Below, piece after piece: positions 13,441 to 61,611 of a DNA stretch of 64,000 bases. The DNA is taken from assembly GCA_000004985.1 (NCBI GenBank), contig GG738889.1. The stretch is one strand, 5' to 3'. The stretch is from Naegleria gruberi. Its lineage: Eukaryota. The notes beneath the pieces are model-generated. The model worked only from the letters and a program-made list of their open reading frames with translations, was not told the origin of the DNA and ran no database searches. The position numbers and the translations under genes are program-made. The first letter of the stretch is position 1. Each line of letters begins with the position of its first letter.

Positions 13441-14439
13441 ATGTTGAATAAAAATATATTTAATAAATTTAAAAATGTAATTCTTTTAAAATTTAACTTG
13501 GAAAAAAAAATGAAACAATTTAAACAGTCCATTAATTTATTGAAATTATTGAATAATAATAAAACAACTATTAATAGTTCTTCCACTGCATTCAAATCAA
13601 TTATAATCAATAATAACAATTATGGATTTAATAGAGTAAATAATTATCATCATCATTCCATTCTTCAATTGAACAATAATAATAACAATACGGAACAAAA
13701 GAATACTATTAGTACATCCAATAATAATATTAATATTAATAATAATAATAATAATAGTACTCAACAACAATTAGAAGAACAAAAATTTGTCATTTCCGAA
13801 GATGTTGAAAGTACTCCATCATCATCATTAAATAATAATACTAATACAACCAATAATAATAATACTTTTAATAAGAATCAACAACGTATTAGAATTATTA
13901 ATTCATCATCTAATAATTCCAATTCTTCATCATCATCATCTTATAAATTTACAAAAACACTTAAATATTCAATAATATTTACAATAGCATCTGTTGTAAT
14001 ATATATTATAGTAGAAACTAATAATGATAGAATGAATTATTATGTATCACCATCTAAAGTAATGGATAATCGTCAAGATTTTCCACCTGATCGTAAAATT
14101 AGAATTGGAGGTATTGTTAAAGAGGGAACAATTCAACATGGTGAAAATAATTTTCTTACAATATTTAAAATTACAGATTTGAAATATGATATTGAAATTG
14201 AATATAAAGGTGTTTTACCTGATTTATTTGAAGAAAATAGTACTGCTATTTGTGAAGGTTTTATGCTTGGACATTCTAAATTGAAATGTACTAATATTTT
14301 AGCTAAACATGATCAGAGAAATGGAATGCCACCTGAAATTGCATATGAAGTTGAAAAGAATAGAAGAGAAATGGAAAGAAGAAAATTAAATCAAGAACAA
14401 GAAAGTTCTAAGCATCATCACATTGAAAGTGAAATTTAA
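13441..14439 (+). CDS. ccmE: cytochrome c-type biogenesis protein CcmE (System I haem chaperone), N/S-rich N-terminal extension
   Basis: TM helix IIFTIASVVIYIIV, then YYVSPSKV...PDRKIRIGGIVKEGTIQHG.NNFLTIFKITD..YDIEIEYKGVLPDLFEE..TAICEGFM......C.NILAKHDQRNGMPPEI. This is collinear with E. coli CcmE FYTPGEI..P.VRLGG.V.PGSV.R......V.F.I.D....V.V.Y.GILPDLFREGQGVV..G.L.......A.EVLAKHDENY.PPEV. Alternative start at 13510. Confidence 0.8.
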   Translation: MLNKNIFNKFKNVILLKFNLEKKMKQFKQSINLLKLLNNNKTTINSSSTAFKSIIINNNNYGFNRVNNYHHHSILQLNNNNNNTEQKNTISTSNNNININNNNNNSTQQQLEEQKFVISEDVESTPSSSLNNNTNTTNNNNTFNKNQQRIRIINSSSNNSNSSSSSSYKFTKTLKYSIIFTIASVVIYIIVETNNDRMNYYVSPSKVMDNRQDFPPDRKIRIGGIVKEGTIQHGENNFLTIFKITDLKYDIEIEYKGVLPDLFEENSTAICEGFMLGHSKLKCTNILAKHDQRNGMPPEIAYEVEKNRREMERRKLNQEQESSKHHHIESEI

Positions 14440-15857: not shown

Positions 15858-17207
15858 TTAATCTTCACCATAAACTGATTGAGATTGACCATCAGTCACA
15901 TCATGTTGAATTATTTGTCTATCAATACTCGCTGTGAATGCTGTCGAGCCATCATATGACCAGCATGCACTGGTTACCATCAATTCATGACCTCTCAATG
16001 TATTATGACAATGACCACTCAAATCATAAATTTTAGCCACACGTTTATCCAAAGAAACTAACATTCTCTGGTGGTATTCAGATATTGAAATATTATTGAC
16101 ACCTCCTGATTTGATTGGAATAGTCTTGACTGGTTTTGTCATGTTTCTATAATCAAAAATACGTAACTCTCCATTGTCTGTTCCTGTTATAATGAATCTA
16201 TCACTTGGAGTAAAGGCAACACAATTAACAGGATCTGAATGGGATTTGAGTGACGAAATTGGAGATTTTGAGTCTGAATGAGAGTCCCATAAAAATACAT
16301 TACCATCAGATGAAGCACAAGCAATTAATGATGACTGATAAGCACATGTAACATCATTAAGGTAGGCAGTTTCTACAGGTGAGTTTATCTTTTGAATTTC
16401 TCTTAATTCCAAATCTAACATTCTAACACAACCATCCCAACATGATGTAATAATATTATCACCACGATTGTGATGGGTGAAATCACAACTAGAAATGATA
16501 CCCTTATGTGATTCTGTATTTTTTACGTGTGGATTTCTGAGATAGGTTGGCCTATTTCTTATCATACCTTGAACACCCTCTAAAGTATTGGTTATGATTT
16601 TAACAATATATTCACAAAGTAATATCAATGTTGTTGTTGTTATATTGAACAAAGTAATAAAACATACCTTCAGTAATATAATATTTTTGTAACTCGTTAA
16701 GACTATCATCATTTTCACTATCTGTATTTACACCTTCATTTTGATAAGCTTTAAAATCAATATGACTATCTAATAAATCTTGTGTAAATAAATCATGTTG
16801 AGTTTCATTAAAAGATTCATCAAATTCAGTGCTTGTTTTGTGAATATTATCTATAGATGGTAATTTAGAATGTCTATTAAATGGTTTAAATCTATTACTA
16901 GAATCATCATCATATTCATTTTCTCCAACATATTGTCCACTTGTTGATTGATTTAAAGTGAGAGCATTATTTTGTTTTAAAGTATCAGCAAATTTCCATA
17001 AATGTACAGATTGATCACCTGAAACAGAACAAATCATTTGCGAAGTTGGATGAAATTTGATTCTATTTACAGCTCCACTATGTCCCTTATAAACAAGTAA
17101 TGGATTAAGATGAGAAAAATTAGATCCCCATAAACAACATGTTGAATCTGCTGAAGCTGTTGCAAACAGTGGTGTTGATGTGTCAATACTACAAACAGGT
17201 GACATTT
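15858..17207 (-). CDS. WD40-repeat protein, 2 exons
   Basis: complement(join(15858..16579,16668..17207)). ATG at 17207 (MSPVCSIDTSTPLFATASADSTCCLWG...). Donor AAG|GTATGT and acceptor TTTAG| remove an 88-nt intron and join ...KYYITE-E-GVQGMIRNRPTYL. Multiple WD signatures (GHSGAVNRIKFHP, SCWDGCVRMLD, ACASSDGNVFLWD, ITGTDNGELRIFD, FTASIDRQIIQHD). Confidence 0.6.
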
Positions 17208-17354
17208 TAATATCAAACACTGCATCTCTGTGAAATAAATATTTTCTAACAATTTTCTTATTATCTGGTTGTCTATCATTATTGAAATAATATTACAATG
17301 AGATAAATAACATCATATTGTTGATATATTAGTAGTCTACATATTGAAATAAAC

Positions 17355-21758: not shown

Positions 21759-23852
21759 TTATTTATTAAAGATTGGTTTTAAAATAGTTTCTGAGGCATC
21801 AAATGGTTTGAAAATAAGTCCGTTTGAGTTTAAGATTTCCTTTGGATTGTCATAGAATAGACTGAGAATTGATTGCCTTCCAACTTGTCTTGGAATATTA
21901 GTACAAAACTTTACACTGTATACATCCTTTACAAGTTTAGAAAGCAATCTTTCATGAGGTTTCTTATCTTTGGTTTTTCTGGAAGCTGTCAGTAATACTT
22001 TCCATTTTTCTAGGAATAACAGCCACAACTCATGGTCATCCATGATATGTGGAAACCATCTCAATTCACAACAATTGCTCTCAATCATTCTGTCATCCAA
22101 AACTCTTGTTGGGAATAGCTTCTTTGCAAGCATTTTTCTATAAGTTGTTACAATTTCACATCCATCAAGCTCCATAATGACATTTGGAGGACAATGGCAG
22201 AATTTTTGTTGACCTTTTGGTGAAGTAACAAGAGAAATTCTAAGGGATAAGTGAGGCTTTGGTACTCCTTTGAATAGCATTCCAAGCTTACCAACAACAT
22301 TTTGTCTGTTAAATATGATATCTTCCTGAGGAATATCAACTGGCTGAGTTAATGACCCTCCCATTAAATACAACTCATAATTCTTTTGGTTTTGATAATC
22401 ACCGTTCATTATTGAAAAGTTTGCATGTCCACAAGTTATTTCATGATATAGCCCCTTTTCACCTTCAACAACAATAACAAATTCAAACACCAATTGTGCA
22501 TTCACATCTTCTGTCATTGTTCTGACAAGAATTCGATTGTCTAACTCATTGGTAAACTGCCATTCATCTGTTTTGTTTGGGTTCCAAAATGCTGAAATTT
22601 GATAAATATTTGAAATGTGCTCCCCATTTGACATTAGGGAAACATACACTTTTCTTTCAAGAACCTTAACACTATCAGATGACAGAGGAATGCCTCTAGC
22701 AACATACATGCTGACCTTAAAGCTCGTCGCATAAATTGGAAGAATGTTTTTTGTGCAAGTGTCCAGTGTTAAATCTAAGAAATTGATTCCAGAACTGTTG
22801 ATGGTAGGAGTCACGAATTTGGAAGTTGAATATTTTCCTGATTGTAAAACTGAATGGAATGAAGATGTTCTAAAGGAAGATGGAAGTGTCTTAAAAATAT
22901 TAATATACATTAATGGTGCTGGCTCGAACAGTGATTTACATTTCTCGAATAAATTTCTATTTCTATACATTGCTTCAATAAACTCTATTGAACAGTTAAA
23001 GAAACTTGATTCTGTTTTACTCACCTCCAATATCAATAACTCCGTCTCCATTTTTATCAATATTAGTTAATATCTCAGTTATTACTTCCACATCTTGTTT
23101 TGGATTCATTCTTCCATTTGTTGGAATTGATTCTAAAGCTTCCTTAAACTCGTCAAATGAAAGATATCCGTCTCCATTTTTATCAAGTTTATCAAAAAAT
23201 ACTTCTATTGCCTTTCGTTTCTTATTGTCATTTTCGAAAAGAACGTGATTAACCTTTTTCTTCATTAAGGTTGAAAACTGATTCATATCCAATAAACCAT
23301 CCTTTGATCCTGCCAAATGGAAGAGTTCATTGATATATTTTGGTGATGGATCTAACCCATAAGACCGAATGGCAACAGCTAATTCATTCTTTGAGATTAG
23401 CTCATCCCCGTCAGTATCTATCATCTTGAATGCTTTTTTCATTTCCTCAACAAAAATTATATCCGATCGATTGTAGTTGGCTGATGTTGTTGATGGAGTT
23501 GTTGTTTGTTTGCTTGCTATTGATGAAATTGCAATTGACACACTTTTAGGGGATGATTTTTTAGATGAAGCCACTGAATCTGTAGTAAATTGAGTACTTC
23601 CGCTGTACAATGATGGAGATGGTGAATGAAGAATGCCTTTAACTGGTGATTGTGTTTGTTGTTGTTGTTGATGAGCAGCAAGCAAATCCCTTGCAGACTG
23701 TACTTGTTTTGGTTGCTGATTTTTAATAACAACATTTTGAGTTGGTTGTACTTTTTGAACCACCTCTTCCTCATTCAATCTTTCCTCATCTCTGTAGGAG
23801 CTTGTTGTCTCCTCAGTTTCATAATAAGTTGAAGATGCAGTCCCTACACTCA
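21759..23852 (-). CDS. four-EF-hand protein fused to a large C-terminal beta-rich (C2-like?) domain, 2 exons
   Basis: complement(join(21759..22984,23035..23852)). ATG 23852 (MSVGTASS...). EF loops DTDGDELISKNE, (KDGLLDMNQF), DKNGDGYLSFDE, DKNGDGVIDIG|E. A 50-nt intron (G|GTGAGT...CAATAG|) splits the last loop, so codon GAG (E12) is restored and the exit helix FIEAMYRNRNLFEK follows in the frame of the long downstream ORF. The ORF-track ORFs 23017..23907 and 21759..23060 are the two halves of this one gene. Confidence 0.6.
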
Positions 23853-23895
23853 TTTTTTTAAAGCAGTTTTTGGTGATTTGTAGTTGGTGGGAATA

Positions 23896-23910
23896 TTTTT
23901 GGCGCAAATT
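23896..23910. promoter_or_regulatory. E2F-like element TTTTTGGCGCAAATT, 44 bp upstream of the EF-hand/C2-like gene ATG (23852) and 214 bp upstream of MPG (divergent promoter)
   Basis: TTTGGCGC core = TTTSSCGC consensus. Confidence 0.35.
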
Positions 23911-25140: not shown

Positions 25141-25701
25141 TTATTTATGTAATTTAGATTCAATTAATTTTTGCAAATAAACATATTTGTCAGTCACACC
25201 TTCCCAATTAACTGAGAATGATTGTTGTAATTTTGAAGAGAATTCTTCACTATGGTACACTTTAAGGAAGCTCTTTTGCATAATGGCTAATACATCCTTG
25301 TGCATTACTGCCATCACAACTTGATATAACATAAAGATCAATGCTCCATGAACAATAAAGAACATAATCTTGGTAATAAATAAACTATTTTCATCCATCC
25401 AAACCACAACTATTATCATTAAGGAAAAGATAAAAACCAAAATCATAATTGCCGATGTACCAGTTATAATGAAATCTTCGCTTAAATCTTGAGAAAATTG
25501 ATTTTTAAATGAAATAAACCATATTGTTAGAGTGACAATAAGGAAAGATAACATTAGATGATGCTTGGCCATGAAGGATGTTTTCCCTGACGAACAGGCA
25601 AATCCACAAGTTAACATAAAAGAGAGCCAATAAATTAAACTAGGGGTAATAAATAATAAAACAATTCCTAACAACACATTAATCTCGACCAAGGATGACA
25701 T
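25141..25701 (-). CDS. hypothetical 4-TM membrane protein, 186 aa
   Basis: Uninterrupted ORF with four hydrophobic helices (VLLGIVLLFITPSLIYWLSFML; LMLSFLIVTLTIWFISF; AIMILVFIFSLMIIVVVW; IMFFIVHGALIFMLYQVVMAV). Confidence 0.45.
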   Translation of the reverse strand: MSSLVEINVLLGIVLLFITPSLIYWLSFMLTCGFACSSGKTSFMAKHHLMLSFLIVTLTIWFISFKNQFSQDLSEDFIITGTSAIMILVFIFSLMIIVVVWMDENSLFITKIMFFIVHGALIFMLYQVVMAVMHKDVLAIMQKSFLKVYHSEEFSSKLQQSFSVNWEGVTDKYVYLQKLIESKLHK

Positions 25702-27104: not shown

Positions 27105-27247
27105 AAAGGTTTTGAATAAAATTGTGTAAATAATATTCTTCCAGATTGATTATTTTGATAACTTGTAATTGATTGGAACAATTTTAGTGAAATTGATTTG
27201 TAAAATCTTATCCAATTTAATTTTAATAAAACAATTTTTCAAAAAAA

Positions 27248-28116
27248 TGATAAAACGGATTTCCAGGCTAAAACACACTCCCGATGTGGTTAACATTAGG
27301 AAGAGTTTCATCAACATTTCATTCCGAAACAAAAGATATTATCTTGGATTGGATATATCATCAGCCAAGACTGGTTATTCAATTTTAAGTGATGAAGGTG
27401 CTGCTCTTGAATGTGGACTTTTTGACACACAACACATCTTTGACTCTCAAGAATTTGGATTATTCATGAAGGAAAATTTTAGGAATATTGCACAACGATA
27501 TAAATCAGATGAACAGGATGAGTGGATTGTTGGAGCTGAAGAATTTTTATTGAAATTCAATGACAAATCAACAGCAAATACTATTGCCAAGTTGTCAAAT
27601 TGTAACACTTTGGCATGTTATGAGTGTAGAAATGAATTACCTGTTAAAAAATTATTTAAATTCAATGTTAATGCAGCTAGATCATTCTTTGATATTAAAA
27701 GAGAGGAGAAAAAGAGTGAAAAAAAGTCCAAACTAAATGTGTTTAATACTTTAAAACATTTACTCCCAAAGGATTATGAAATTAGATATGGAAGAGCTGG
27801 AAATTTACATGAATCTAACTTTGATGTTACTGATTCATTATTGATTTCCTTGTACACATTTGTTAAATATAATGCTTGCGAAAACACTTTGAACTTTTTG
27901 AATCTTTTATCGAGCCATAGAGACAAAACTATTAGGAAAGAACTTATTGAATTATCATTATCTTTGAATCCACTAATTACTCAAGATTTGGAAGATGACG
28001 ATAAAATACTTTACCTTTTGGACAACTATTCATCTGCAAAAGATCACTTATTCATTCTATTTAAAAAGAATTTTCAGAAAGAATATGGACCTCATTTTAA
28101 TATAAATATTAATTAA
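27248..28116 (+). CDS. RNase-H-fold protein resembling mitochondrial Holliday-junction resolvase (Ydc2/CCE1-like)
   Basis: ATG 27248. N-terminal basic presequence-like stretch, then YYLGLDISSAKTGYSIL (RuvC/Ydc2-type first beta-strand with catalytic Asp). Family call from the motif only. Confidence 0.35.
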
Positions 28117-31100
28117 TTTTGACAGAACGGACATTTGCCATTGTTTTTCAGCATTTCAAACTCAAAATCTTCTTGTTGGAAGAAGAGATTACAATGATTA
28201 CATTGCACAATTGGGAAGTTTGGTATAATACATTTGAAAAAGTGTCTCTTGATAAGAGGATTCTTCCAATCTACAATAAATACATCTTCTCTTCTGAAAG
28301 ATTTCAACATTTCTCTGTTAACCTTTACAATCTTACCATCAATATTCAATAAAGCCTTACTAAACAAGTCTGTGAGAGTCATGTCTTCGTAAGGTTCCTC
28401 AGAATCTTGATCAAGACGAAGGGATTGAACATTTGCACTGCTTTTTTGCTCTCTCCATTTATCTCCTCCCTTTTTTCCTTGCATGCTTGGAGGTGTTTGG
28501 TTTATCAGCTTGATAGCCTCTTCTTCTTCAATTCCTTCTTCCAATTCAAACTCGACAAGTGGTAGAATGTGATATGAGAGAGGTGATCTCTGGAATGTAT
28601 GACTACAGTTAACGCAGCAATCAACACCTTTTTCATTCAGGAATGGATTGGATGCTGAACATCTAAAACAAATTGGAATACATTCCTCATTATTCCTCAT
28701 TGGCTTACTGTGAATGGAAATACTTGACAACTCAATTTCATCCATAATTGGTTTTGGAAGCCTCAAATGTTGAATATTTTGATACACTTCTCTAGCCAAT
28801 TTGTAGTTTTCTAACGATAAACCGAGTTTAGCCATCGTCACTGTAACTGTTATCCTAGAAATAGATTTAGGCAAGTTAGAAACATCTAAATTGTTATAAA
28901 GGAATAAGCAAGCATTGAACAGATGTCTGGTATCGCAAGAGTTGAATGGAAGTTCGGAGAATTTGTGTACAATGTCATAAGCAAAATAAATTTGACTGAG
29001 TTGATAATACTTTTCAAACTTTTTGATTTCCTGCCAGACAGATTCTGTTATTTGGGATTCATTCTTTGTTGTATGCATCAACTCATTGGCAACTTTCCAC
29101 AAGTAGTATGATGCGTCCTTGAATCTGTTTTCTTCAATAGCGTTTTGAGCAAGTTCTTCAATGATTTTCATTGCCTTTTCTGGTTTGTTAGCCTTTCTGA
29201 AAGCCACTTGAGCTTCATCAAATTTGTCTTCAATTGCTAAATTTTCAGCATAAGGAAGATATACTTCTGCTGAGAATTCTGGGTTCTTTTCAAGAATTTC
29301 GAAAGCTTGTTCCCACTTTTGAGCACTAACAAACAATTTGATAAGGGATGGGAAGTCACCAATCTTTTGATAGGCTTCCTTGGCGGCATCATACATCTTG
29401 TTCTTTCTAAAGTACTCAGCACACATAGCAACACCTTTGGTTTCGTTGCTGTTCAAGTTTCTGCATGTCTCTTGTAGCATATCAAACCATTTGTTATCGC
29501 CCATGATTTGAATAGCTTTCTCATAGTTACCTGCAGCAGCATACAACTCTGCAGCAGATCTATGATCAGTGTCTTCCTCAGCTGTTCTAGCTTGACGCAG
29601 AATCATATCTGTTAGGTTGATATTATCGTAGGTAATGGCAAGATCTTTTGCTTCTTTCCATTTTCTCAAATCGCACAACATATCCATAGCCATATCTGCT
29701 CTGCCTCCCTTAACAAACATTTTAGATGCTTCATCAAATTTACCTTGGTAAGCATGTATTTCAGCAACGAATAGATCTCTGTTGAATTGATTTTGCTTAA
29801 TGAGCTTTTCATATTTGTCAATCAAAGAAATAAATTTGGTGTCTTCGATTCTATTGAAACATTTTCTGGCAATATCTAAATTGACTCCCAAAAGAGCTTG
29901 AACACCCAAAAATCTCCAATCGGTTTCTGTCACTCCAAGACAAGCAATTTTGTATCCTTCAGTAAAATCAGCCTTTTCGATATATCTGTACAAGGTTGCT
30001 GATTGAGGAACATCTACAGTACTCATAGATACTTGATGTAAACAGAACACCTTTGAACCAATAAATCCAACTACTAATCCTTGAAGTTTGTGAGAATTGA
30101 CTGGGAAGTTTTCTGTCTTAATATTCAAAATACCAGATCCAGAATAACACAACATATTTTCATGTTCTGAATTCCAAGCAACACCTTCAGCATTCTTTTC
30201 TTGGTAAACGTATTTCTTATCCTTTAAATCATAAACCATCAAATCATTATTTTGGTCTACCAAAGCTAATCTTCTTCTAGACATATTCAAATCCAAACTT
30301 TTGATGGAATAGTCATGCTTCAGAAGTTGAACAGGGAAAGGGTTATCAACGAAAATCTTGAGGATAGATCCGTTAGCCAGACCAACTAGGATTGCTTCTT
30401 TGAATGGTGGACCACCAATTACTTTGATGTATTTAATTGGAGCTTCCAAATCCCAAACTCTTTGGAGGTTTCCTTTGAAATCGTAAAGATGCAACTCTTT
30501 TTCATGACAGAATATCAAATTTCCGTAAGTAACAACAAGCATGTTGCATTCGATATCTTTCACAATTTTCTCGACCAATCTGTATTGCAATTCTTCATCT
30601 CCTTCTTCACCTTCGTTCTCATTCTTATTTTGGGTTAATTCAATGACATGGATCTTGTTCTTCATTTGAATTGCCATTCTGTCTTTATAAATAGCTATCT
30701 TTTTAACGTAATCTTTGCATCTTATGGTTACTTTCTTATCGTTTACTAAGTCTTGAACAACTACATCTGTCATGGAGTCTCTAAAAGCATACAAATTGCC
30801 ATATAAACTATGTACAGTAATAAAATCCAATTTTTGAACTTGAAGCAAGCCATTATTTGTACCAATAGCCTTTCATAATAATCAGTATCAAAATTATTAC
30901 CAATTACTTACAACAAAGTTTTGGTTTGGTTTTTGAGCTACACTCCAAATCCATCCTTGATGTTTTGAAACAGGAACTAATTGAACACCATCCTTATTCC
31001 ATAATGATACTTCACCAGAAGTTCCACCAATACATAAATATTCTCCATTTGAAAAATAGGAAACTGTACAAGGATCAAATCCTAATTTTTGATCCTTAAT

Positions 31101-31841
31101 AATTTGCTTTCCACTCAAGTGATAAAATGAAATTGTTTGATCCCAACAACCAACAGCAAGAATATCATATTGTTCATCTCTTGAAGGGTTAAATGAAATT
31201 GTCCAAATAGGATCTGATCTAGCAAAGCTTACTAATTCTTTTCCTTCTCTATTATAAATTCTAACACTTCCGTCAAAAAATCCAAGAGCCATGTGCTGGC
31301 CATCACTTGTCCAACTGCAACACAGAATTTTGGAATTAACTTTAACTTTCTTTACTTCCTTTTCATCTTGGGACCACAAACCAAAATCTGTACAAGCACA
31401 ACTCAGCAATTGATTAGTTGTTGGATTGAATTCTAAACATTGAATAGAATCATTATGAGTAAATTTGAGTTTTGGTTCTCCAAGGTGAGTCCATAAAATT
31501 ACACTATTGTCAGCACTAATGATGTTTCAGTAATCATGATGAAGTTGTTAAACATACCCTCCCGAAGCAAATGTTTTACCATCTTTAACAAAAGAAAGAC
31601 AATATACATTATCCGTGTGTCCTCTACATTGTTTGATAAACTCTCCGGTAGTGGAATTGTACATCAAAACGTGTCTATAACTTGCACAAACAAGCACAGT
31701 ACCATCAGGTGAATAACAAACAGCATACACAGCTGTTGGTGCTCCACTTTTATCAGTCTATCCGCATCACCATCATATCAGTATACAACAAATTACTACA
31801 AAACCTACATAACTATCACCCCACAGTGTAGATGTCTTCAT
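28113..31841 (-). CDS. IFT122: intraflagellar transport protein 122 (IFT-A subunit), 4 exons, 1197 aa
   Basis: complement(join(28113..30869,30912..31515,31558..31757,31809..31841)). MKTSTLWGDSY|TDKSGAPTAVYAVCYSPDGT... (human [25 protein letters not shown]); FASGG|(G)ADNSVILW (human FASGSADKSVIIW); ...QNFV|AIGTNNGLLQ; LYAFRDSMTDVVVQDL (human RYAYRDSMTDVIVQHL); YIKVIGGPP; C-terminal Cys-rich CIPICFRCS..CCVNC...CPFCQ. Introns 51, 42 and 42 nt; donors GTAGGT, GTATGT, GTAAGT; phases consistent. Confidence 0.9.
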
Positions 31842-31868
31842 TTTTTTAAGGTTGTGTTTGTAGTTAAT

Positions 31869-31880
31869 TTTGGCGCCAAA
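31869..31880. promoter_or_regulatory. perfect palindrome TTTGGCGCCAAA, 28 bp upstream of IFT122 ATG (31841); divergent with gene 32051
   Basis: Exact 12-bp palindrome matching the classical E2F site. Confidence 0.4.
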
Positions 31881-32050
31881 CCAATTATTACTTCTACAAT
31901 GTTGAAAAATTGTATGCCATTAGAAAGTTTCTCATTTAGTGTCACTTAAATCGTGGTGGGAAAACATTGTATACAATTATAATATTGCTTTTTAATGATA
32001 AAGCAGAGAGAACTTGCAAACACATTCCGATCAACTTTCAATCATAAAAA

Positions 32051-32823
32051 ATGTGCCAATTTATCTTTGAGGATGATGACAAGGAATCACGTTCTGATTA
32101 TGAATTTTCTAGAGAACGTAAAATATTAGGAAGCATTTGTAGTGTCGGATTTTGCTCTGTATATATTATATTATTTGCTGTAATTCTTGGTGTAAATATT
32201 TCGTGGTCAACTCCACCAACATTGAATTGTTCGATATCGAGTGAATTGACAACAAGTTTATCAACACAAATATCACAAATTAATTTAAAAAGAAATATAT
32301 TTAATCATTATATTGATATTTCGATAGATAATAATTTATTTGCAAAATTAAAAAGTCGTTCCGTCTTGGGATATCCAATGACAATAGATTTGACATCAAA
32401 CAAGGATTCATCACTTGGTGATTCGTATGCTCTTGATGAAGTTGGAACAAGTGGTCATAATTTAACTATCCGTAATTGTAATGGTACTTTTATTGGAAAT
32501 ATAAAACAACAATATGATTCTGTGTGGAGTGATTTCATCATTAATAATTTCAATTCTAGGCCAATAATGAAAATTACAGAAAAGAGACAAATCTCACCAA
32601 AAGAATTTTATATTTATGATTATGATAATTCTAAAACTCTTATTGGAACTATTTCACAAAACCCAGCTGCTTGGGGAGACGGTATGTTTTTGATTTAATA
32701 TTTTGAAGTTTGACATTTTTAGAATGGACACTTTCTTTAAATTCAACAATTGTTTCAAAGAATGTTTCTATTGATAGAAGATTACTTTTATTCCTAGTTT
32801 CATCTATTTCGTATTCAAAATAA
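32051..32823 (+). CDS. hypothetical membrane protein (N-terminal TM; tubby/scramblase-like beta-rich body?), possible 41-nt 3' intron
   Basis: ORF 32051..32698. Optional splice G|GTATGT (32682) to TTTTAG| (32722) replaces the C-terminus GMFLI* with EWTLSLNSTIVSKNVSIDRRLLLFLVSSISYSK*, which has a hydrophobic tail. If used, the stop at 32821-32823 abuts the PRMT1 stop on the opposite strand. Confidence 0.35.
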
Positions 32824-32824
32824 A

Positions 32825-33980
<1,156 letters not shown>

Positions 33981-34152
33981 TTTTTATTCTTTCAATTTTT
34001 ATTTTCTTCAAAGAATATGATGAATAATTTCATTTTCAATTATTGTTGAATGATGGTTGTTGGAGAGAATCTTTTGACAATGGATGATGCGAATCTTTGC
34101 TTTTTATCATGATTTCAATAAGTTTATTCAATAATTTTATAGAGATGTTGTT

Positions 34153-35256
34153 TCACAGTAGAATCATTCTAGATTTACTGATCACTTCTGTTGGGTGATG
34201 AATTACATGATTACTTGTTGCATTAGTTGATGTGTTACAAATTGTAGTTAGAGTTGTCGTATTATTGTGGCTGGTAATTGAGGTAACCTTATTTTCCATC
34301 AAGAGAGTTTTAAGATTCTTGCCTTGCATTTGAGCAATTTCCTTAGAATTGAAGTTAGAGAATCCCTTTGCAATTATCTTTCTACTGTTACAATCTCGAA
34401 TAGTAACAATGTCATCCCTTTCAAACTCGCCAATTAACTTGGTTATTCCACAAGCAAGAAGATTTTTACATCTTTGTGAAAGTGCAGAGGTGGCTCCTTG
34501 ATCAACCAGAATACTACCTTTTTCTTCACCTTTTCTTAATACCTCCAGAATGGAACAATTCATTGGATAATGCGATTCGAGAGCTCTCACATGATGAACC
34601 AGAGTGTCCACATAATGGTCCGATACAGGTAGGTATTCCTGTAACCTGTAGAGGTAATCTCTGTTTGGACCTGAATGGCCAAAAGCTCTCGCAATATGTT
34701 TTGATGAACAACAGATATTCTCTGGACCAATGAATGGACACTTCTTTGGCTGTTCTCTATTTACAAACGGATCAAAATAATAAACTATGGCATTCTGACA
34801 AACTGCAATCGTATCAGAAACGTAAACCTTAACACTGGTTTTCTGATAACCAGCAACCAATTCTCTATAATCTAAATCTTTCATCACTCGCTCAGCATTC
34901 TCAAATGATACCTTATAACAAGTTCCCCAAACTATTTCCTCGTCCATATCTTCACTTTTGGAATTGATATCATGTTGTAAAGATGATTTGTGAGCAAAAT
35001 TTTGATATTGACAAGAACAAATAGGCTTATTAGATTTTTCTTTCAGTACTTTCTGATAATCATTTTCTCTGATGATTGTAAGCGTTCTTCCTTCTTGATT
35101 TGGTTGTCCTCTATGGAATAAATCCTCCAACCAGAATCTTCTTCTGAATCCTTTGATAAAACCACTAAAAGAACTTTCATATTCAAATCCCGGCCTCCAA
35201 ATAACAGACCCATAGGCAAAGATAAACAACGGAGCATCAATATCACCCATACACAT
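34153..35256 (-). CDS. ChaC-like gamma-glutamylcyclotransferase fused to a C-terminal PUA domain
   Basis: Single ORF, 367 aa. N-terminal part: LFIFAYGSVIWRPGFEY...GFIKGFRRRFW...HRG...GR.LT......W.GT.YKV...........L.YRE...GY....V.VY (ChaC/GGCT signature YGSL.W.P.F.Y......GF.RG..RRFW). C-terminal part: SILVDQGATSALSQRCKNLLACGITKLIGEFERDDIVTIRDCNSRKIIAKGFSNFNSKEIAQMQGKN, which matches the PUA domain of glutamate-5-kinase ProB (..VDEGA..A.......LLP.GI..V.G.F.RGE.V.I.......IA.G...Y.S.......G). Confidence 0.65.
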   Translation of the reverse strand: MCMGDIDAPLFIFAYGSVIWRPGFEYESSFSGFIKGFRRRFWLEDLFHRGQPNQEGRTLTIIRENDYQKVLKEKSNKPICSCQYQNFAHKSSLQHDINSKSEDMDEEIVWGTCYKVSFENAERVMKDLDYRELVAGYQKTSVKVYVSDTIAVCQNAIVYYFDPFVNREQPKKCPFIGPENICCSSKHIARAFGHSGPNRDYLYRLQEYLPVSDHYVDTLVHHVRALESHYPMNCSILEVLRKGEEKGSILVDQGATSALSQRCKNLLACGITKLIGEFERDDIVTIRDCNSRKIIAKGFSNFNSKEIAQMQGKNLKTLLMENKVTSITSHNNTTTLTTICNTSTNATSNHVIHHPTEVISKSRMILL

Positions 35257-35565
35257 GATGTTGCACTATTAATATATTGCTGGAGAGAAGTTGATCCTTT
35301 TTTTCGGTTTGAATTGTCTACTTATGATACTCATCGAAATGCATTTCCAAGCTTGCTTCAATTTCCATGGAAAAAGTCTAGACTAGGAACGGAAATATGG
35401 ATTTTCCAACTTGCTGTTTTTTTGAAGTAAAGAGATGTTTTCATAATGGAAGATTCACTCCTCATAACATTAAATACATTCTCCTTAAGTCCTCCTAAGG
35501 CAATTTTATTCTTTTAAATACCAAGTCAACATGTTTGTAATTTTATTAATTCTCAATTATTTAAA

Positions 35566-37122
35566 ATGTCTTCAAATCTTCCATGTGCAGAGATTATTTT
35601 GGAGGCTTGCAAAAAATTGAGTCACATTCTTGGTTCAAGCTTTGGTCCACTTGCTTTTCATAAATTAATTATTAATTATCATCACCATGTATTTTCGGAT
35701 GTAATTTATTCAAATGATGGAGCAACAATTATGGATTCACTTCCGATTGTTAATCCTATCGGAAGAATTTTATGTGATTTATCAAAATCTCAGGAGGAAC
35801 AAGCTGGAGATGGTACAACTGGTGTTGTTTTATTGTGTTGTGAATTGGTTAGAAATTGCTTGGAGGAATTACATTTAAAACAATTAATACCTTTGGATGT
35901 GATTTGCAGTAATTTATCTACTTTGAAAAATGTATGCAAAGAGACTTTTCTGACTATAATGCAGAGAGACAGGGTCATGATGCAACAATTTGTTACAAAT
36001 AATTGTGAAATTATTAATTTTATATGTAAAAATTCATTACAATCTAAGGAATTGAGATTTCATATTGAACATTTTAAAAGCATTTTAACTGAAGGATTTT
36101 CTAATGGAAATTCCATTCCTAAACATACTAAATTTCATATTATTGAGGGTGGCCAATTGAATGACAGTTTTGGATTTAACGGAATTTTTATGAATATTTC
36201 ACAATCTTCATTCTCAAAGAGATACGCCTATTCTAGTAGTTATTTGGATAAATTATCCAAGTGTAGATCAATATTATTGCTAAAGAGGCAAAATTTAGAA
36301 ATGAATCAAAAAGAAAAGCTATTTTGGAGAAGTTTATTTGAATTGGGAACCAGTAGTAGTGGAATAATAATTTTGATGGAGGGAGCATTCCCTTTTCATG
36401 ATATATTTTATAGTTCAGATTCTAATGTGCTGATATTTGATAAATTAAGCTCGAAACATTTGCAAAATATATCACATTCTCTAAATCTACCTTCAATTAT
36501 CCCAGTTGGATCAACCACCACAGTCGAGAATGAGGATCTCTATATTTTCGAGTCTTCTCCTAATTTTTCAATTTTTCAAAACGAGATTTTCATAACTATT
36601 CCTAATGTTTGTGACTTTTTTAATATTATTATTCGAGGGCCTTCCAATACTATTAATGAGGAATCCAAGAGGTCAATTAAGGATGCCTTCTATGTAATTA
36701 AAGGGTTTATCAATGAAAACAACTTTTTCAGTGCTTCCAATACATCAGAATTATGTGGAGGAGGATGTCACATTGAAATGAGTATATGGAGAGATGTCAG
36801 CAATTCCTCAGTACTGTCCAAAGGAATTTCAACAATATTTGCTGATAGCTTCTTATCAATAGTGAGATTTTTATTGCACTCGAGTGGATTCAAACATGAT
36901 TCAGAAATGATAATTTTACGATTGGCAAGTGAATATTCTAAAAATCCAAACTCTTTCTTTGGTATTGATCTTACCAATCAAGATTCACAAACTCCAATAA
37001 TTTCCAACATTATAGAAGCTCATATCATTGAAAATCTCAGAGTCAAGAAAATAATGATCGAGTTGGCCATTGAAACAGCCATAAATCTACTCAGAATCAA
37101 ATCAATTGATTTTACCAATTAA
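35566..37122 (+). CDS. divergent group-II chaperonin-like protein (BBS-type: MKKS/BBS10/BBS12-like), 518 aa
   Basis: Chaperonin ATP-binding signature GDGTTGVVLL preceded by the equatorial-domain pattern (DVIYSNDGATIMDSLPIVNPIGRIL.DLSKSQEEQAGDGTT). The rest is highly diverged with low-complexity inserts, as in BBS chaperonin-like proteins rather than canonical CCT subunits. Confidence 0.5.
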   Translation: MSSNLPCAEIILEACKKLSHILGSSFGPLAFHKLIINYHHHVFSDVIYSNDGATIMDSLPIVNPIGRILCDLSKSQEEQAGDGTTGVVLLCCELVRNCLEELHLKQLIPLDVICSNLSTLKNVCKETFLTIMQRDRVMMQQFVTNNCEIINFICKNSLQSKELRFHIEHFKSILTEGFSNGNSIPKHTKFHIIEGGQLNDSFGFNGIFMNISQSSFSKRYAYSSSYLDKLSKCRSILLLKRQNLEMNQKEKLFWRSLFELGTSSSGIIILMEGAFPFHDIFYSSDSNVLIFDKLSSKHLQNISHSLNLPSIIPVGSTTTVENEDLYIFESSPNFSIFQNEIFITIPNVCDFFNIIIRGPSNTINEESKRSIKDAFYVIKGFINENNFFSASNTSELCGGGCHIEMSIWRDVSNSSVLSKGISTIFADSFLSIVRFLLHSSGFKHDSEMIILRLASEYSKNPNSFFGIDLTNQDSQTPIISNIIEAHIIENLRVKKIMIELAIETAINLLRIKSIDFTN

Positions 37123-37163
37123 ACAACAAGCTTTAAAATTGCTTCTAACAAAGGCAAGAAGTG

Positions 37164-37175
37164 TTTGGCGCCAAA
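37164..37175. promoter_or_regulatory. perfect palindrome TTTGGCGCCAAA, 69 bp upstream of the TRF-like gene ATG (37244)
   Basis: Exact 12-bp palindrome; lies between the BBS-chaperonin stop (37122) and the next start. Confidence 0.4.
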
Positions 37176-37243
37176 AATTTAAAAAAAATAACCAAACAAC
37201 AATCTCACACAAAGGCTTGCATTCGCTGTTGGTGAAGTTGAAA

Positions 37244-38557
37244 ATGTCGTCATCGAAGCAACAAGAGACTAACAATACGGAACAAACACAACAACAAATG
37301 GAAACACAACAACAATATGATAATCAAGAGGAAGTTGAAATAGATGAGAGATCTTTGAAATGTAATGCTTTTATCATTGAATATATACTTTATAAAAAAG
37401 TTGATTATCTTGTAGAGGATTTGTTAAGAGAACTCCCATATGATCGCGATAATGTTAATCTTAGAACTAGATTAATTATAAGTCAATTGAATGGATTGTG
37501 GGAAGAAGTTGAACAGGAAGATAAAGTTGATGGTGATAGAATCGGATTTATTGTTAGTTCTGTGACTGCTTTACTAGGATTACTTGATGAGAGAAAACAA
37601 ACTTTTGCAGAATTTTTCCAAGAAGCAACCTTCTCCGCAGATGCTTATTCTAAAAAGATCAAGAAATGGTTGACCTCTTTCATTAATGCTGACACATATG
37701 AACTCAAATATCAATCACTTGAGGCTCTTGTCAAATATTTCAATATACTAGGAAATTATCTTGGTGAACCTAAGCTTTATTCATTGCTGAATCAACCAAA
37801 ACAAATCCAGGAGGAAACACAATCTAATGATGCTGTAATGAATGAACCACAAATACCACAAATCACTGTTGATTCACTTCCAGACGAGCCATGTACATAT
37901 TTAGGGCTTAAAAACACAGGAATTTCAACATCAGAAGAAACTACAATCTTTATAACAGAAAGACTTTTTAACGCTAGGAAACCATCAAAACCAATACCTC
38001 AGGTACCTGAGAAAGCACCAAGACAAGAAGAGCTTACTCAGCAACCTACTCAGCAAGTTGTTGCAGCCTCTACTCAATCTAATCAAGATGAACAAGCCAA
38101 GAAGAGAAAACCTACTGCTAATGCCAATAATTTAAAAAAGAAGAGGTTAATGGATAGTCAAAAGGATGCTAAAAGAGTTGTAATTATTAGGGAATTTGCT
38201 TCTTCTGAAGATGATGAAGATATTCCTATTACTCGTGCTTCTAAGCTACAAAGACCAAGATCTAAATCAGATACAAATGGTAAATCCAAGAAGAAATCTG
38301 TTTTTGAGGATTCTTCCAGTAGTGAAGAAGAAACTGAACGAGTTCTTTTCAAGCCACGTAAAAAATCAAAAGATACCAAGCAAAAGAAAGTATTTTGGAC
38401 TGATGATGAAGTTAACGCCTTACTTAAAGGTTTCAAGATGTATGGAACTCAGTGGGCAAGAATTTTAGCAGAATTCAAAAAGACTTTCCATCCCAACAGA
38501 GATAGTCTTAGTCTTCGTGACAAATACAGAAATATGGAAAAGTATGGTCAAATTTAA
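37244..38557 (+). CDS. TRF-like protein with single C-terminal Myb/SANT telobox-type domain
   Basis: ATG 37244 (MSSSKQQE...). C-terminus KKVFWTDDEVNALLKGFKMYGTQWARILAEFKKTFHPNRDSLSLRDKYRNMEK fits the telomere-repeat-binding Myb/telobox (W..EE...L..GV..YG.G.W..I.........R....L.DK.RN). Basic NLS-like tracts (KKRKPTANANNLKKKRL); N-terminal helical region could be TRFH-like. Confidence 0.55.
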   Translation: MSSSKQQETNNTEQTQQQMETQQQYDNQEEVEIDERSLKCNAFIIEYILYKKVDYLVEDLLRELPYDRDNVNLRTRLIISQLNGLWEEVEQEDKVDGDRIGFIVSSVTALLGLLDERKQTFAEFFQEATFSADAYSKKIKKWLTSFINADTYELKYQSLEALVKYFNILGNYLGEPKLYSLLNQPKQIQEETQSNDAVMNEPQIPQITVDSLPDEPCTYLGLKNTGISTSEETTIFITERLFNARKPSKPIPQVPEKAPRQEELTQQPTQQVVAASTQSNQDEQAKKRKPTANANNLKKKRLMDSQKDAKRVVIIREFASSEDDEDIPITRASKLQRPRSKSDTNGKSKKKSVFEDSSSSEEETERVLFKPRKKSKDTKQKKVFWTDDEVNALLKGFKMYGTQWARILAEFKKTFHPNRDSLSLRDKYRNMEKYGQI

Positions 38558-44172: not shown

Positions 44173-47100
44173 TTAGAATCTTGGTGGAGGTGGAGGAACA
44201 CTACCACCACCAAATGAAGGTGGAGGAGGAACACCTCCTGACATTGGTGAGGAAGGTGGAGGTGGAGGAACACTGCTTGCTCCACCAAATGAAGGTGGAG
44301 GTGGAGGCATAGAACCACCTGATGGTGGAGGTGGAGGTGGAGTATTCATCATATTTCCTCCCATTGTTGGGGATGAAGAATATGAGCTAGGACTGCTACT
44401 GTATGTATCCATAGATGGAGGTTGTGAAGTTGGAGTATGTTGTGAAGAACCACCAAATACTGATCCACGACTTCTGAAATTAGAAAATGATTGTTCATTG
44501 GTTGTGACAGTGGCAACAATTTTGACCTTTGTGAAATCTTCATCGGCTGGTGGTGCGTAATCATCTGGAGTATTGTCTGCAAGTGGATAGTAATTACGTA
44601 AGCAATTGAATACACGATTGTTAATGGAACGAACAATGTGTGCATTATTGAGGAATGGTTTCAATTTTTCAAAACCTTCCTTTGAAATATTGGAAATATT
44701 CAAAACGTGATCAGAAAAGTTGAAAGCATCAAATCTGAGTTGTTGTTGGAAGAGATAGACAATTGTAGAACCTCCCCAGAAGAAACCATCTCCAAAGACT
44801 TCAAAATCAGATGGTTCATTGGCAACTTCAGGTGGAATACAGAAAACAAATTGCAAAACACCCCACAAACGATAGAATTCCTTTGAAGAGTCCAACTTTT
44901 GCAAACGATCTGGTGGTGAAGTACCTTTCCATGATTCTCTAACGTTAGCAAGGAAACCACTCATTCTTTCCAAGAATTGTTTGAAGAGTGACAATAGTTC
45001 ACGTGGAGGTTGATACATTCTCATAGCTCTAGAAGCTTGTTCAGTAAGCTTCTTGGACAATTCTGGAGCGTGAATACTTTGTTGAACTTGTGGATCATTG
45101 ACGAATGAAGCAATAGTTGTGGCAAGTGGTGTTTGTTCAACATCCTTTCTAATATAATAATCAGAAAGTTTTTGCAACAAGAGTAAATCTTCTGACATCA
45201 TGTGTTCACTTGTTAAACCATAACGAGATGATTTACGTGCAAGACTATTCTTTTGGTGTTGTTGCTGTTGTTCTTGGAATTCAGCTTCATTTTCAATTTC
45301 TTCTTGTAACTTTTCAACTCTCTTTTGTTTGGCAGTCTTAGTGAGCGGCTTAATACCCAAGAATGGAGCAGAAGCAATATAGGTTGAAATATTTTGAGGC
45401 ATCATACTAGAATCGAGTAAGAGAAGGAAACAGATACAATTACCAATACTTCTAAAGGCGTGGAATACACCTCCCTTCAAATCATCATAATCAAGGAAAT
45501 CTCTGAATTGAGCAATGAAATATGAATAGACACCTATTAATTTGTAAGCAGCAGGTTGGAGTGTAATCTTTGGTGCAATGGCTTCCATCATAGCACCAAT
45601 GTATGGAGACATTTGATTGTACAACTTATCTTCAATATCAGTAATAACAGTTTCAATAATGAGGGCAAGAGATTCTTGACCAACCAATCTGATCAAAGTT
45701 TCAATGTGTGGACGACCGAAGAATTCCTTATATTGATCTAAAATTGGTGTGAATGCTTCAGAGAAACCAGCTGTTACAAATTGATGGAGAGCACGAGGCT
45801 TGTAACTTTCTCTCTTGTAGTCAATTTCACTGTATGTATATTTACTACGTACGAAACGATGGGTGACAGTGTTGAAACAGAAGTTAGGGAAGAAGTCCAT
45901 AATCAATTCTTCAATAATGTGTCTGGCAATACGACTTTCGAATGAAACCATACTGGTACAATCGTTGACTTCAGCAAAGACAGATTCGAAAGAGTCCAAA
46001 GCAAGGTGTTTAGATAAAAGTTGGTGAGTGATTTTAACACTTTCCAACATGATTTCCAATTCAACGATACCATTCAATTCTTGGGATTCGAATTTCTTGA
46101 TGAGAGCCAAAATGTTTTCTCTGATGTTTACGTTCATACGTTGGGTAATAATATAGTTCAAGTCAACATATCGACCAAGAATGTTAATGTGTTTCTGTAA
46201 GAGCAAAACGTCAAACTTGCTCTTGGTAAAGTTAAAGTTTGTCTTTACGAATTGATCCTTTTCTAATGGAACACGCAACTTGTTGTCAAGTAAAATACCA
46301 AGAGCAACAGATCTGTAGTGTTTGTAGATAGATTCACTCAATTTAAAGATCAATTGATCAAAGACCAAGTTAACTTCAGCTTCAATTTCATCATATAAGA
46401 ATCTACGCTTCAAAACAAACAATGCTCTATAAGCGGCATCATTGTAAATGTTAATTGGATAAATGATAGATTCCATCAAGGCACTGTTAGTTCTCTTCAA
46501 AATTTCTTCAGTAAGAATCCATGGCAATGACATTTCAATAGGGAACTGAATCTTCTTGGAAATTTCCAAATAGAATTCACGATACCACAAATCAGCCAAA
46601 TCAGCAGCACGTCTCAATGTGGTAGAGTAGGCCAACAAGTAATTCCAAGTGTAGGTCTTATTGTAGAATTCCTTGAAAGATTCGACATGGGAATCATTAA
46701 AGTCTTTCTTGGAGAAAATACCTGATTTTTGCATACCTGGACTTCTTTCACTGTACAAAGTGGAAATGATTGAACGAATCATGTGAAGTTGTGTGAAAGA
46801 TGGACCAACAATTCTCTTTGGATATTCCAAGGCAGCTTCACCCTTCTTCTTTGTTGGTTTGGTAATGTCTTGAGGTGGTTCATTGAGCCAGTCACCAGCC
46901 AAGTTTCTCAATTCCAAAACAGTTGGGAAGATTGGTCTTTGCTTGTTCTTTGTGTGATAGAGCATATCTTGTAAGTCAACTTGGATGAACTGTTGCAATT
47001 GGTAGTGAATTTCTGAACGAATCAAAGGAGCCATCAATGCATTTTGTTGTAACATGATATTTTCGAGACCCTTGATCATTGAAATGGCATCAACTAGAGC

Positions 47101-48728
47101 TGATCTTTCATCCTTGTCATAGTTGAAACGAACCACACGTTCATATTCAAGTATATCAACCTTTTGACTAGCATCAACAGCTTCATAACGTTGCTTTAAA
47201 GTTCTTGCTTGTTCATCATCAATTGGATGTGAGTATTTCCAAGCACATTGTTCCAAGATAGCGGTTGTCCAAGAGGCAATTAATTTCATACCTTGTTCAG
47301 TCATATCTTTAGCTTTTTCACGCATTGGTTGAGGAATAATTGTTAACAATTCTTGACTTGTTGGAGAATCCTTGATCAATTTCTTCATACGATTGATATG
47401 AAGTTTATAATTTTTAGTGAAATTTTGGAAATCAAATCTCATCTTTGGAATTTGATTAACAAGAAGGAATTGTTTTTGTAATTGTTCTTCTTCCTTTTGA
47501 GAGAGAGACCAATCCTTTTCTTGTAAATTTGGACAATTCTTTAAAACTGTCTTGATAGAGAATGTCATATCACCATATAATGGAATATTTGGATATGATT
47601 TGAAAATCTTGTTAAATCTACCCATACTGTTGGATCCAACTTTTCTCAAATAGTTATTCTTTGAAGTATCCTTGTTATCAATGAGATACATTCCAAATAC
47701 CAAAACACGAATTAATGTGTGTTTTTGATCACAGAACAAATATTGATGATCTTCAAAATTTTCAGAGCATCTTTCCATCAATAGAATGATAATATCTTCA
47801 TATCCAGCATTCTTTATCAGAGAATCTTTGAGACCAGAAATGATAGTATTATTGTTTGATAAGAAATTATAAAGAAGACCATATTCTTCACTCTTTGTAT
47901 CTAAGAAATTCAATTGTTCTTGTGTTAAACCTTCCTTGTCCATGAATTGAGCAGCACGTCTAACAGTTGACATGTCGTTGTTAATGGCTGCTTTCATGTT
48001 TTTGAGAGCATCCAACTTGAGGATTGTATCTAAAACACTAATCATATAATCAAACATGGTTTCACTAGGAATTTCCTTTCTCTTTTCATTAGCAGCCATT
48101 TCAATCATAATCTTTGTGAGTGTTTTGACGGTATTTGTGTGAAAAGCCATCAAATCACGAATCTTTTTAATTTCTGGTTCCAAAACATCGAAAAACTTTC
48201 TATATAATTCAGCCTTGTTTTCAGAATCTGCTTGAATTTGAGGAAGAGCACGTGAAATTGAACGATAAGTGTACAAGGTTTGAATAAAGTATTCACCAGT
48301 TTCTATTATTTCTTGCTATTATTATTGTAAGTGTTATTGTTAGTGATAGTGATGTTATTATTATAGTTGCGATATTTGATGGTTTTGTTGTTGTTATTCG
48401 AAATGGTGGAATCGAATAATATTTGTCATCAACAATTTGTGATTATTATATAATAAATAGTAAAATAAAGATCATAATTGTGAATGTAATATTAAATAGA
48501 AGCAGTGTGAGATTAGTCTAATCATGAGAACAAACCTACCAAAATTTGAATATGTTCAGCTTCTTTAGCAAAACGAGTAGTATAACCACAACGATCAGCA
48601 AAATTGAGTGGACTTGTAAAAGCACCAGTTTCGTAACTAATATAATCTGATGCTGCTTCAATGGTTGGCTGATTAGACTCAACCATGTAAGAGTTGAGTA
48701 CTTTCAATCGTTGCTTGGTATTGTCCAT
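44173..48728 (-). CDS. CYFIP: CYFIP/PIR121/Sra-1 (SCAR/WAVE complex subunit) with proline-rich C-terminal extension, 2 exons
   Basis: complement(join(44173..48315,48540..48728)). Exon 1 MDNTKQRL...PLNFADRCGYTTRFAKEAEHIQIL (human [24 protein letters not shown]); 224-nt intron with TTG|GTAGGT donor and AATAG| acceptor; exon 2 QEIIETGEYFIQTLYTYRSISRALPQ (human [26 protein letters not shown]) ...VLEPE..K......IQFPIEMS.PWILT...YDEIEAEVNL.FDQ..YKL. Continuous match along about 1240 aa, then about 140 extra residues ending (PPPPPPSGGSMPPPPPSFGG...VPPPPPRF). Confidence 0.9.
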
Positions 48729-51330: not shown

Positions 51331-51605
51331 ATCAGGGAATTTTTCAGAGTCGAATTTTGATTCAGCTATTGGATCAAAACTCTCTATCAAATCAATTTGA
51401 TCCTCGAAAAATTTAATTCGGATCACAACTCAACATCAAATTGTTTATTTTTCAAAATTTGATATTGAGTTTTCACAAACTGACCATCAAAAATTTTATA
51501 CGGGACGCAGTATTATTAAGATTTAAAAAAAGGCTTTTTGGAATGACCAACAACGCTTTGAATAACAACAATACCAACACACTATTTTTAGCGAACACAC
51601 GGAAG

Positions 51606-61362: not shown

Positions 61363-61611
61363 TTTTTTTTAAATTTAAAAATAAAAATTGATTACGTTTC
61401 AATTTTTTTAAAATTCCAACAACGAAATTAGCAAATCGAACAGAAAATGGAAGATTGCAAAGAATGTATTGAACTTTGAAAAGAATAAAGAAAAATTGAA
61501 CTGTTTCTTGACAGGTATTGTTTTCTAGACGGTGTTCGTTTTAACAATGAACGGTTCTTTTGATTTTCCCTTTAACTTGTCAATGTAACGTCAAAACAAA
61601 AGTTGAAAAAA

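Follow-up and report, generated by a model that had tools for sequence, protein, structure and literature searches.

Does a cluster of genes for building cilia lie in this part of the Naegleria gruberi genome? The DNA in question, analyzed here as one window of 64,000 nucleotides (contig GG738889.1 of assembly GCA_000004985.1), contains a minus-strand gene for IFT122, a core subunit of intraflagellar transport complex A (IFT-A), at positions 28113-31841, a plus-strand chaperonin-like open reading frame (ORF) at 35566-37122, and a plus-strand Rab GTPase gene at 61612-62444. An original prediction made from the sequence alone had treated them as three cilium-associated genes, namely, IFT122, a BBS-type chaperonin, and a Rab28-like GTPase, and had suggested that they could be co-regulated. 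All three genes are indeed present, but ciliary evidence exists for IFT122 alone. We therefore favor, with a probability of roughly 0.8, the view that this is an ordinary N. gruberi stretch in which a single genuine cilium gene stands beside two unrelated paralogues, each restricted in lineage and derived from a housekeeping family, with no ciliary cluster. The source itself is not in doubt. ORF 35566-37122 encodes a product with 100% identity to XP_002673596 (NAEGRDRAFT_71184), a predicted protein of N. gruberi, and the expectation of a flagellated organism is thereby confirmed, N. gruberi being an amoeboflagellate.

IFT122 and its chaperonin-like neighbor

The spliced IFT122 model comprises four exons (31841-31809, 31757-31558, 31515-30912, and 30869-28113) separated by three GT..AG introns of 51, 42, and 42 nt and encodes 1,197 amino acids. 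Pfam recognizes two IFT122-type beta-propellers, Beta-prop_IFT122_1st (PF23381, 1.4e-51) and Beta-prop_IFT122_2nd (PF23377, 2.3e-110), both far above the gathering scores, followed by TPR_IFT122 (PF25295, 9.2e-102) and Zn_ribbon_IFT122 (PF25144, 4.5e-12). When aligned to the solved structures in the PDB, residues 1-1195 match residues 1-1184 of Chlamydomonas IFT122 (8bda_L) with 1114.5 bits, the human protein scores 1098 bits, and Tetrahymena IFT122 likewise aligns end to end. No other IFT-A subunit was retrieved at an E value of 1e-20 or below in this search, and the only matches ranking under the IFT122 chains are generic WD40 proteins (best, 195.8 bits). The domain order is that of the solved proteins (Chlamydomonas 8bda, human 8bbf/8fgw, and Tetrahymena 8f5o), with two WD40 propellers, a TPR solenoid, and a zinc ribbon. 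The Naegleria protein differs from them only in being slightly shorter (1,197 versus 1,239 to 1,292 amino acids). The gene is a genuine IFT122, as predicted and as already known, and its product would serve retrograde intraflagellar transport whenever the amoeba builds flagella.

The chaperonin-like gene starts 3.7 kb from the IFT122 start and consists of a single exon with an uninterrupted ORF of 518 amino acids. The Pfam model Cpn60_TCP1 (PF00118) matches it with 153.6 bits (gathering cutoff, 34.3), only over the two stretches that flank the apical domain, and the CCT subunits and thermosomes of the PDB all match with E values between 1e-22 and 1e-16. On the eight TIGRFAM equivalog models of the CCT subunits, the protein reaches 74 to 137 bits against cutoffs of 456 to 800; the highest score is that for eta (TIGR02345; 136.5 bits; cutoff, 669.2). 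The same holds for all five members of its family, in which the eight models remain far under their cutoffs and eta ranks first by a margin of 0.3 to 25 bits over the runner-up. The TIGRFAM and PDB scores thus agree with the description of a highly diverged chaperonin-like ORF distinct from the eight canonical CCT subunits, and by model scores it groups with none of them at equivalog level. The ATP-site motif is present as described (AGDGTTG, residues 80-86).

The three-domain fold of group II chaperonins is evident in a confident AlphaFold2 model based on 51 aligned sequences (mean predicted local distance difference test score [pLDDT], 87.7; predicted template modeling score [pTM], 0.84). 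Foldseek superimposes it on CCT and thermosome chains of the PDB with template modeling (TM) scores of 0.70 to 0.77, ranking CCT-eta (7nvn_H) first and the engineered lidless Methanococcus chaperonin Mm-cpn (3izk) third, in a flat list (E values of 3e-24 to 1.6e-22) that cannot tell the CCT subunits apart. Similar to CCT/TRiC and the thermosomes (PF00118), the protein has the nucleotide-site motifs and the catalytic aspartate: NDGAT (N50-T54), GDGTT (G81-T85), and D373 of the xxDA motif are invariant in the 51 aligned sequences, and G400 and G401 of the GGG motif are nearly so (at least 90%). In contrast to those chaperonins, its lid is about 20 residues shorter, its apical domain is barely alignable, and it cannot be identified with any one of the eight CCT subunits. 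The lid-bearing segment measures 26 amino acids in NAEGRDRAFT_71184 and 26 to 27 across the five family members, compared with 44 to 47 in thermosomes, CCT alpha, beta, epsilon, and eta, and MKKS; in the model it folds as a strand, a 7-residue loop, and a 16-residue helix. In addition, the N terminus begins some 20 to 25 residues later than in canonical subunits, with loss of the N-terminal strand, and the family carries an insertion of 10 to 20 residues ahead of the GGG motif.

That the gene is functional is suggested by its uninterrupted ORF, by the preserved ATP site, and by its retention across genera whose proteins are only 36 to 47% identical. Judging from its sequence and the predicted model, the protein should bind and probably hydrolyze ATP, and the shortened lid would leave it unable to close a folding chamber by itself. 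A non-encapsulating chaperone, or an accessory or alternative partner of CCT, would be likelier than a ring subunit, and a regular place for the protein in the ring is improbable.

Orthologues were found in N. fowleri (47% identity to NAEGRDRAFT_71184), N. lovaniensis (44%), and Willaertia magna (36%). A word-indexed search over 5.8e9 proteins and a full HMMER scan of 1.84e9 representatives together place the family only in N. gruberi, N. fowleri, N. lovaniensis, Willaertia, and a metagenome protein (P0243), with no other heterolobosean source among the matches listed in either search. The HMMER query was a five-sequence profile that included a protein of Ceratiomyxa fruticulosa (P0005); with this profile, everything beyond the family scored 270 bits or less, the next matches being an Asgard thermosome fusion, a microsporidian CCT-alpha, and CCT-eta sequences. 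The Ceratiomyxa protein is itself a divergent, non-canonical chaperonin that scores 165.7 bits with the family profile, above most canonical CCTs, and is exceeded only by the CCT-alpha of Edhazardia (168.7 bits). A more distant member of the family, P0245, reaches 238 bits with a profile of the heterolobosean members alone. It is encoded at positions 8001-9749 of a compact 60.6-kb eukaryotic metagenome contig (L003; JGI metagenome 3300062347, Ga0606064_0101), and its lid segment is full-length (54 amino acids). The family is hence limited to Naegleria, Willaertia, and two metagenome proteins (P0243 and P0245). We read the gene as an additional, rapidly evolving paralogue among the group II chaperonins, one that probably arose within Heterolobosea or their close relatives. 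The identifier NAEGRDRAFT_71184 is not mentioned in the article text of Naegleria transcriptome papers.

The BBS-type assignment can be judged against the animal proteins. BBS6 (MKKS), BBS10, and BBS12 resemble the Naegleria family in being paralogues that derive from CCT, evolve fast, and stand apart from the eight canonical subunits, and MKKS falls in a similar score range on CCT and thermosome models (50 to 100 bits). BBS10 and BBS12 have about 710 to 720 amino acids, including large insertions, for which a protein of 518 amino acids has no room. Reciprocal profile searches were performed with mammalian MKKS sequences. The heterolobosean profile gives MKKS at most 28.4 bits (rank 275 or lower of 348), compared with a median of 108.5 bits on 269 CCT and thermosome sequences of the same database. 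Conversely, the MKKS profile scores the family members at 13 to 19 bits, which puts them last (ranks 232 to 242 of 242). Published work (PMC2846930) traces BBS6/10/12 to the lineage of CCT8 (theta). Among the eight CCT models, theta ranks only third to sixth for the five members of the family, which is weak evidence, being model scoring rather than phylogeny; MKKS favors the thermosome, theta, and gamma models, whereas the Naegleria family favors eta. The two differ in anatomy as well: MKKS has a full-length lid segment (44 versus 26 to 27 amino acids) and reads FSDCGL where the Naegleria family keeps GDGTT. The assignment to a BBS-type chaperonin is thus not supported as far as MKKS is concerned: affinity is absent in both directions, the best model is eta and not theta, and the family is restricted. 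These comparisons give no evidence of BBS6 kinship for ORF 35566-37122.

The divergent Rab GTPase

The Rab gene is modeled with three exons (61612-61643, 61696-61988, and 62149-62444) encoding 206 amino acids, and the Pfam Ras model matches its two large exons with E values of 2e-24 and 2e-13. The G1 (GDVSVGKT), G4 (NKSD), and G5 (ETSAK) motifs are present, as are the RabF motifs IGVDF and KLQIWD. A search of the 5.8-billion-protein set turned up no N. gruberi entry that matches the spliced product exactly, and the gene is probably absent from, or mis-modeled in, the reference annotation.

The features on which the comparison with Rab28 had been based are all there, namely, an acidic N terminus (MSADEYGSDSG), a longer switch II, and a CaaX end, yet the likeness to Rab28 is superficial. 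Switch II (WDFSADISSRF) exceeds the canonical WDTAGQERF by two residues. Rab28 shows comparable traits: its N terminus is extended and acidic, its switch II region is lengthened, and its CaaX box likewise ends in Gln (CAVQ, versus CTLQ in N. gruberi). However, Rab28 retains WDIGGQ with its extra residue after the Gln, whereas the extra residues of the Naegleria protein stand before RF, and the RabF1 and RabF3-5 regions of the two differ. The CxxQ end is common to both but does not define a family.

Sequence scores place the protein elsewhere. Its best matches outside its own orthologues are Rab1-type proteins (40 to 46% identity), and the PDB hits run from Rab1A and Rab1B to Rab30, Rab11, Rab26, Rab39B, Rab43, Rab35, Rab8, and Rab10. 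The best 60 PDB sequences, spread over more than a dozen other subfamilies, all score at least 105 bits and all outrank Rab28. Over the same region, BLASTP gives 128 bits and 41% identity for Rab1 but 79 bits and 32% for Rab28, and phmmer gives 125.5 versus 73.9 bits. The human Rab28 query is identical to PDB 2hxs over residues 11-184. By these scores the protein falls with a non-ciliary group, the Rab1 type, and the Rab28 assignment does not hold.

The likeness to the Rab1/Ypt1 group lies in the best matches and in the RabF, G1, G4, and G5 motifs. Rab1/Ypt1 proteins have DTAGQ and a CC or CXC end, in contrast to the degenerate switch II and single-Cys CaaX box of the Naegleria protein. Since the identity to Rab1 is too low for an orthologue, the gene is a lineage-specific paralogue, which on sequence criteria is a Rab1-group member restricted to Naegleria and Willaertia. 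Orthologues share 75 to 76% (N. lovaniensis and N. fowleri) and 56% (Willaertia) identity over the full length. At the DxxGQ position, N. gruberi has DFSAD, the N. lovaniensis and N. fowleri proteins share DFAAD, and the Willaertia protein has DFQSL, so that both the Gly and the Gln are lost in all four orthologues; five other Rabs in the same alignment have DTAG followed by Q, H, or S. All four end in KKKKC[TSN][LI]Q (CTLQ in N. gruberi, and CSLQ and CNIQ among the others). Such a protein would be a farnesylated, polybasic, membrane-bound GTPase with little or no intrinsic hydrolysis, and it may act as a stably bound scaffold. We regard it as a candidate pseudo-GTPase that appears to have no tie to cilia.

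Gene order, promoters, and neighboring genes

In N. fowleri, the order IFT122, ChaC/PRMT, chaperonin-like gene, Myb, Mre11, and CYFIP is kept. In Willaertia, genes for UPRTase, a nitroreductase, an amidohydrolase, separase, CCDC171, and Nrap surround the chaperonin-like gene, IFT122 does not occur within 10 kb of it, and the Rab gene is on a different contig. Being kept in N. fowleri and lost in Willaertia, the linkage amounts to ordinary genus-level synteny. The notion of a ciliary cluster does not survive this comparison together with the reduction to one ciliary gene, and with a single such gene, clustering in this window does not exceed chance.

Co-regulation had been proposed from a palindrome (TTGGCGCCAA) upstream of IFT122. 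It is present 30 bp from the ATG: the copy TTTGGCGCCAAA at 31869-31880 sits in a 209-bp divergent promoter common to IFT122 and ORF 32051-32698. The window contains four matches to TTGGCGCCAA with at most one mismatch, compared with 0.43 expected. TTTGGCGCCAAA matches TTTSGCGCSAAA, which we take to be the E2F consensus, and is a candidate site only. A second exact copy at 37164-37175 lies 42 bp past the stop of the chaperonin-like gene and some 70 bp before the ATG at 37244. This ATG encodes the Met of MSSSK within ORF 37106-38557, a TRF-like single-Myb gene (Myb domain by Pfam), and the position near it assigns the copy to the Myb promoter and not to the chaperonin-like gene. Related half-sites occur at 23898, 25723, 10063, and 63201, and half-sites of the form TTTGGCGC adjoin the starts of the minus-strand ORFs 23017-23907 and 25141-25701.

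Neither the palindrome nor its half-sites were found upstream of the chaperonin-like and Rab genes, and a k-mer comparison revealed no word of at least 8 nt common to all three upstream regions, which leaves the idea of co-regulation unsupported. The 11-mer AATGGAAGATT has just two copies in the 64 kb, one upstream of the chaperonin-like gene and one upstream of the Rab gene; in each it is followed by two more common words of at least 10 nt in the same order (35445-35515 and 61446-61489). None of these words recurs upstream of the chaperonin-like orthologues of N. fowleri or Willaertia, and they are probably due to chance in AT-rich DNA. A scan for bacterial promoters and terminators upstream of the chaperonin-like gene, which is unsuited to a eukaryote, returned nothing.

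The remaining genes of the window form a functional mixture: eIF2B, CcmE, WD40, leucine-rich repeat (LRR), EF-hand, PRMT, ChaC-PUA, Mre11, and CYFIP genes, together with a giant REJ/EGF protein, an amino acid transporter, and a kinase. The GC content is 30% overall, 12% in the first 2 kb, and 20 to 27% on to 14 kb. Within the first 14 kb lie several long ORFs without a Pfam match (for example, 11360-13369; 669 amino acids), and the eIF2B gene (2655-3572) and the CcmE-domain gene (13441-14439) adjoin these AT-rich ORFs. Two further candidates for a ciliary role were rejected. The minus-strand WD40-repeat gene at 15858-17220, made up of two overlapping ORFs, matches DAW1/ODA16 in the PDB at 8e-22 among generic WD40 proteins, well below orthologue level, and the EF-hand ORF 23017-23907 (minus strand) is calmodulin-like only.

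Between IFT122 and the chaperonin-like gene, two minus-strand ORFs encode the C-terminal part of a PRMT (32825-33598) and a ChaC plus PUA protein (34153-35256). The N. fowleri annotation joins both into one ChaC-PUA-PRMT protein of 666 amino acids (L002, 7160-9536), an unusual fusion of a gamma-glutamylcyclotransferase and an arginine methyltransferase that may be real or may be an annotation merge. On the other side of IFT122, the plus-strand ORF 27169-28116 (315 amino acids) is convergent with it, the two stop codons overlapping by 4 bp. This ORF has no match in Pfam or the PDB; its stretch GLDISSAKTGYSIL is reminiscent of the N termini of RuvC-like nucleases, as an impression only. The CYFIP/Sra1 orthologue (44173-48276, minus strand) carries a proline-rich, FH1-like C-terminal extension. 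The giant plus-strand ORF 51441-57038 (more than 1,865 amino acids) combines teneurin-type EGF repeats with a REJ domain, a module of the polycystin-1/PKDREJ type.

Alternative readings and significance

Several points weigh against the view of an ordinary stretch with one ciliary gene. The chaperonin-like or the Rab gene may be induced during flagellar assembly. Naegleria and Willaertia, the sole named genera with both divergent genes, are both amoeboflagellates, a distribution that is compatible with a flagellum-linked role without showing one. The status of the chaperonin-like gene as an additional paralogue presumes a separate canonical CCT-eta in N. gruberi. Finally, ATP use, ring exclusion, and GTPase deficiency are read from sequences and a predicted model.

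The alternative that fares best, at perhaps one chance in ten by our reckoning, is that the chaperonin-like protein, though no orthologue of the BBS chaperonins, works as they do: an independently evolved CCT paralogue outside the ring that would help CCT, during flagellate differentiation, to assemble one particular machine rich in beta-propellers or based on tubulin (for example, the BBSome, IFT-A, or flagellar tubulin). CCT folds tubulin and WD40 propellers, which counts in favor of this idea, as does an anatomy shared with the BBS chaperonins, with the ATP site kept and ring-closure features lost. The host genera, moreover, are amoeboflagellates that build flagella de novo, in keeping with the de novo synthesis of the flagellar apparatus described for amoeboflagellates (PMC4819266). 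Against it stand the adjacency to IFT122, which is not conserved in Willaertia, and the lack of any other heterolobosean source among the matches listed in both searches. Many ciliated organisms also build a BBSome without BBS6/10/12. It is equally improbable that this ninth CCT-like protein of Naegleria and Willaertia, truncated in the lid and intact in the ATP site, is a differentiation-specific flagellar assembly factor acting outside the closed CCT chamber. If that were true, the family would have arrived independently, by convergence, at a counterpart of the BBS6/10/12 chaperonins of animals.

Less probable is the ciliary neighborhood itself, in which IFT122, a BBS-type chaperonin assembling the BBSome, and a Rab28-like cargo GTPase would be linked and possibly co-regulated. 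It can draw on a real IFT122, on a chaperonin-like protein that is highly diverged, like BBS6/10/12, on the Rab28-type N terminus, switch II length, and CxxQ end of the Rab, and on the gene order retained in N. fowleri. According to a survey (PMC10074162), BBS6/10/12 are mostly metazoan, with isolated BBS6-like sequences from Mastigamoeba and Malawimonas and one BBS12-like sequence from Dictyostelium; these non-metazoan reports also count in favor of this reading. However, MKKS affinity is absent both ways, with eta and not theta as the best model; Rab28 scores 74 to 79 bits where Rab1 scores 125 to 128, with the extra switch II residues placed differently; and Willaertia lacks the linkage, the chaperonin-like and Rab genes have no copy of the palindrome upstream, and no motif is common to the three promoters. 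This reading is largely refuted for Rab28 and BBS6. The least probable alternative, a diverged heterolobosean CCT-eta (CCT7) orthologue in a normal CCT ring, has in its favor that eta is the best TIGRFAM model in all five members and that 7nvn_H heads the Foldseek list, but founders on scores of 113 to 144 bits (cutoff, 669) with a margin over alpha of 0.3 to 25 bits, on microsporidian CCT subunits that score far higher on their own models (P0006, 459 bits on alpha), on the missing lid and N-terminal strand that a closing ring subunit needs, and on an identity of 36 to 47% between close genera, a divergence far faster than that of any essential CCT subunit.

What the locus means for ciliary biology is limited, since a single IFT gene is to be expected in a 64-kb window of a flagellate genome and the original finding carries little weight. 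The value of the stretch, a modest one, lies rather in its two lineage-restricted paralogues. The conserved Rab, with its farnesyl-type end, Rab1-type derivation, and deficiency in a GTPase motif, is a candidate pseudo-GTPase. The chaperonin-like family would be a further case of a CCT paralogue escaping the eight-subunit ring, for which, to our knowledge, the animal BBS chaperonins have so far been the only well-studied examples. A lid-truncated paralogue that keeps its ATP site would also be a natural counterpart of the engineered lidless chaperonins. Both oddities are directly testable in the Naegleria differentiation system.

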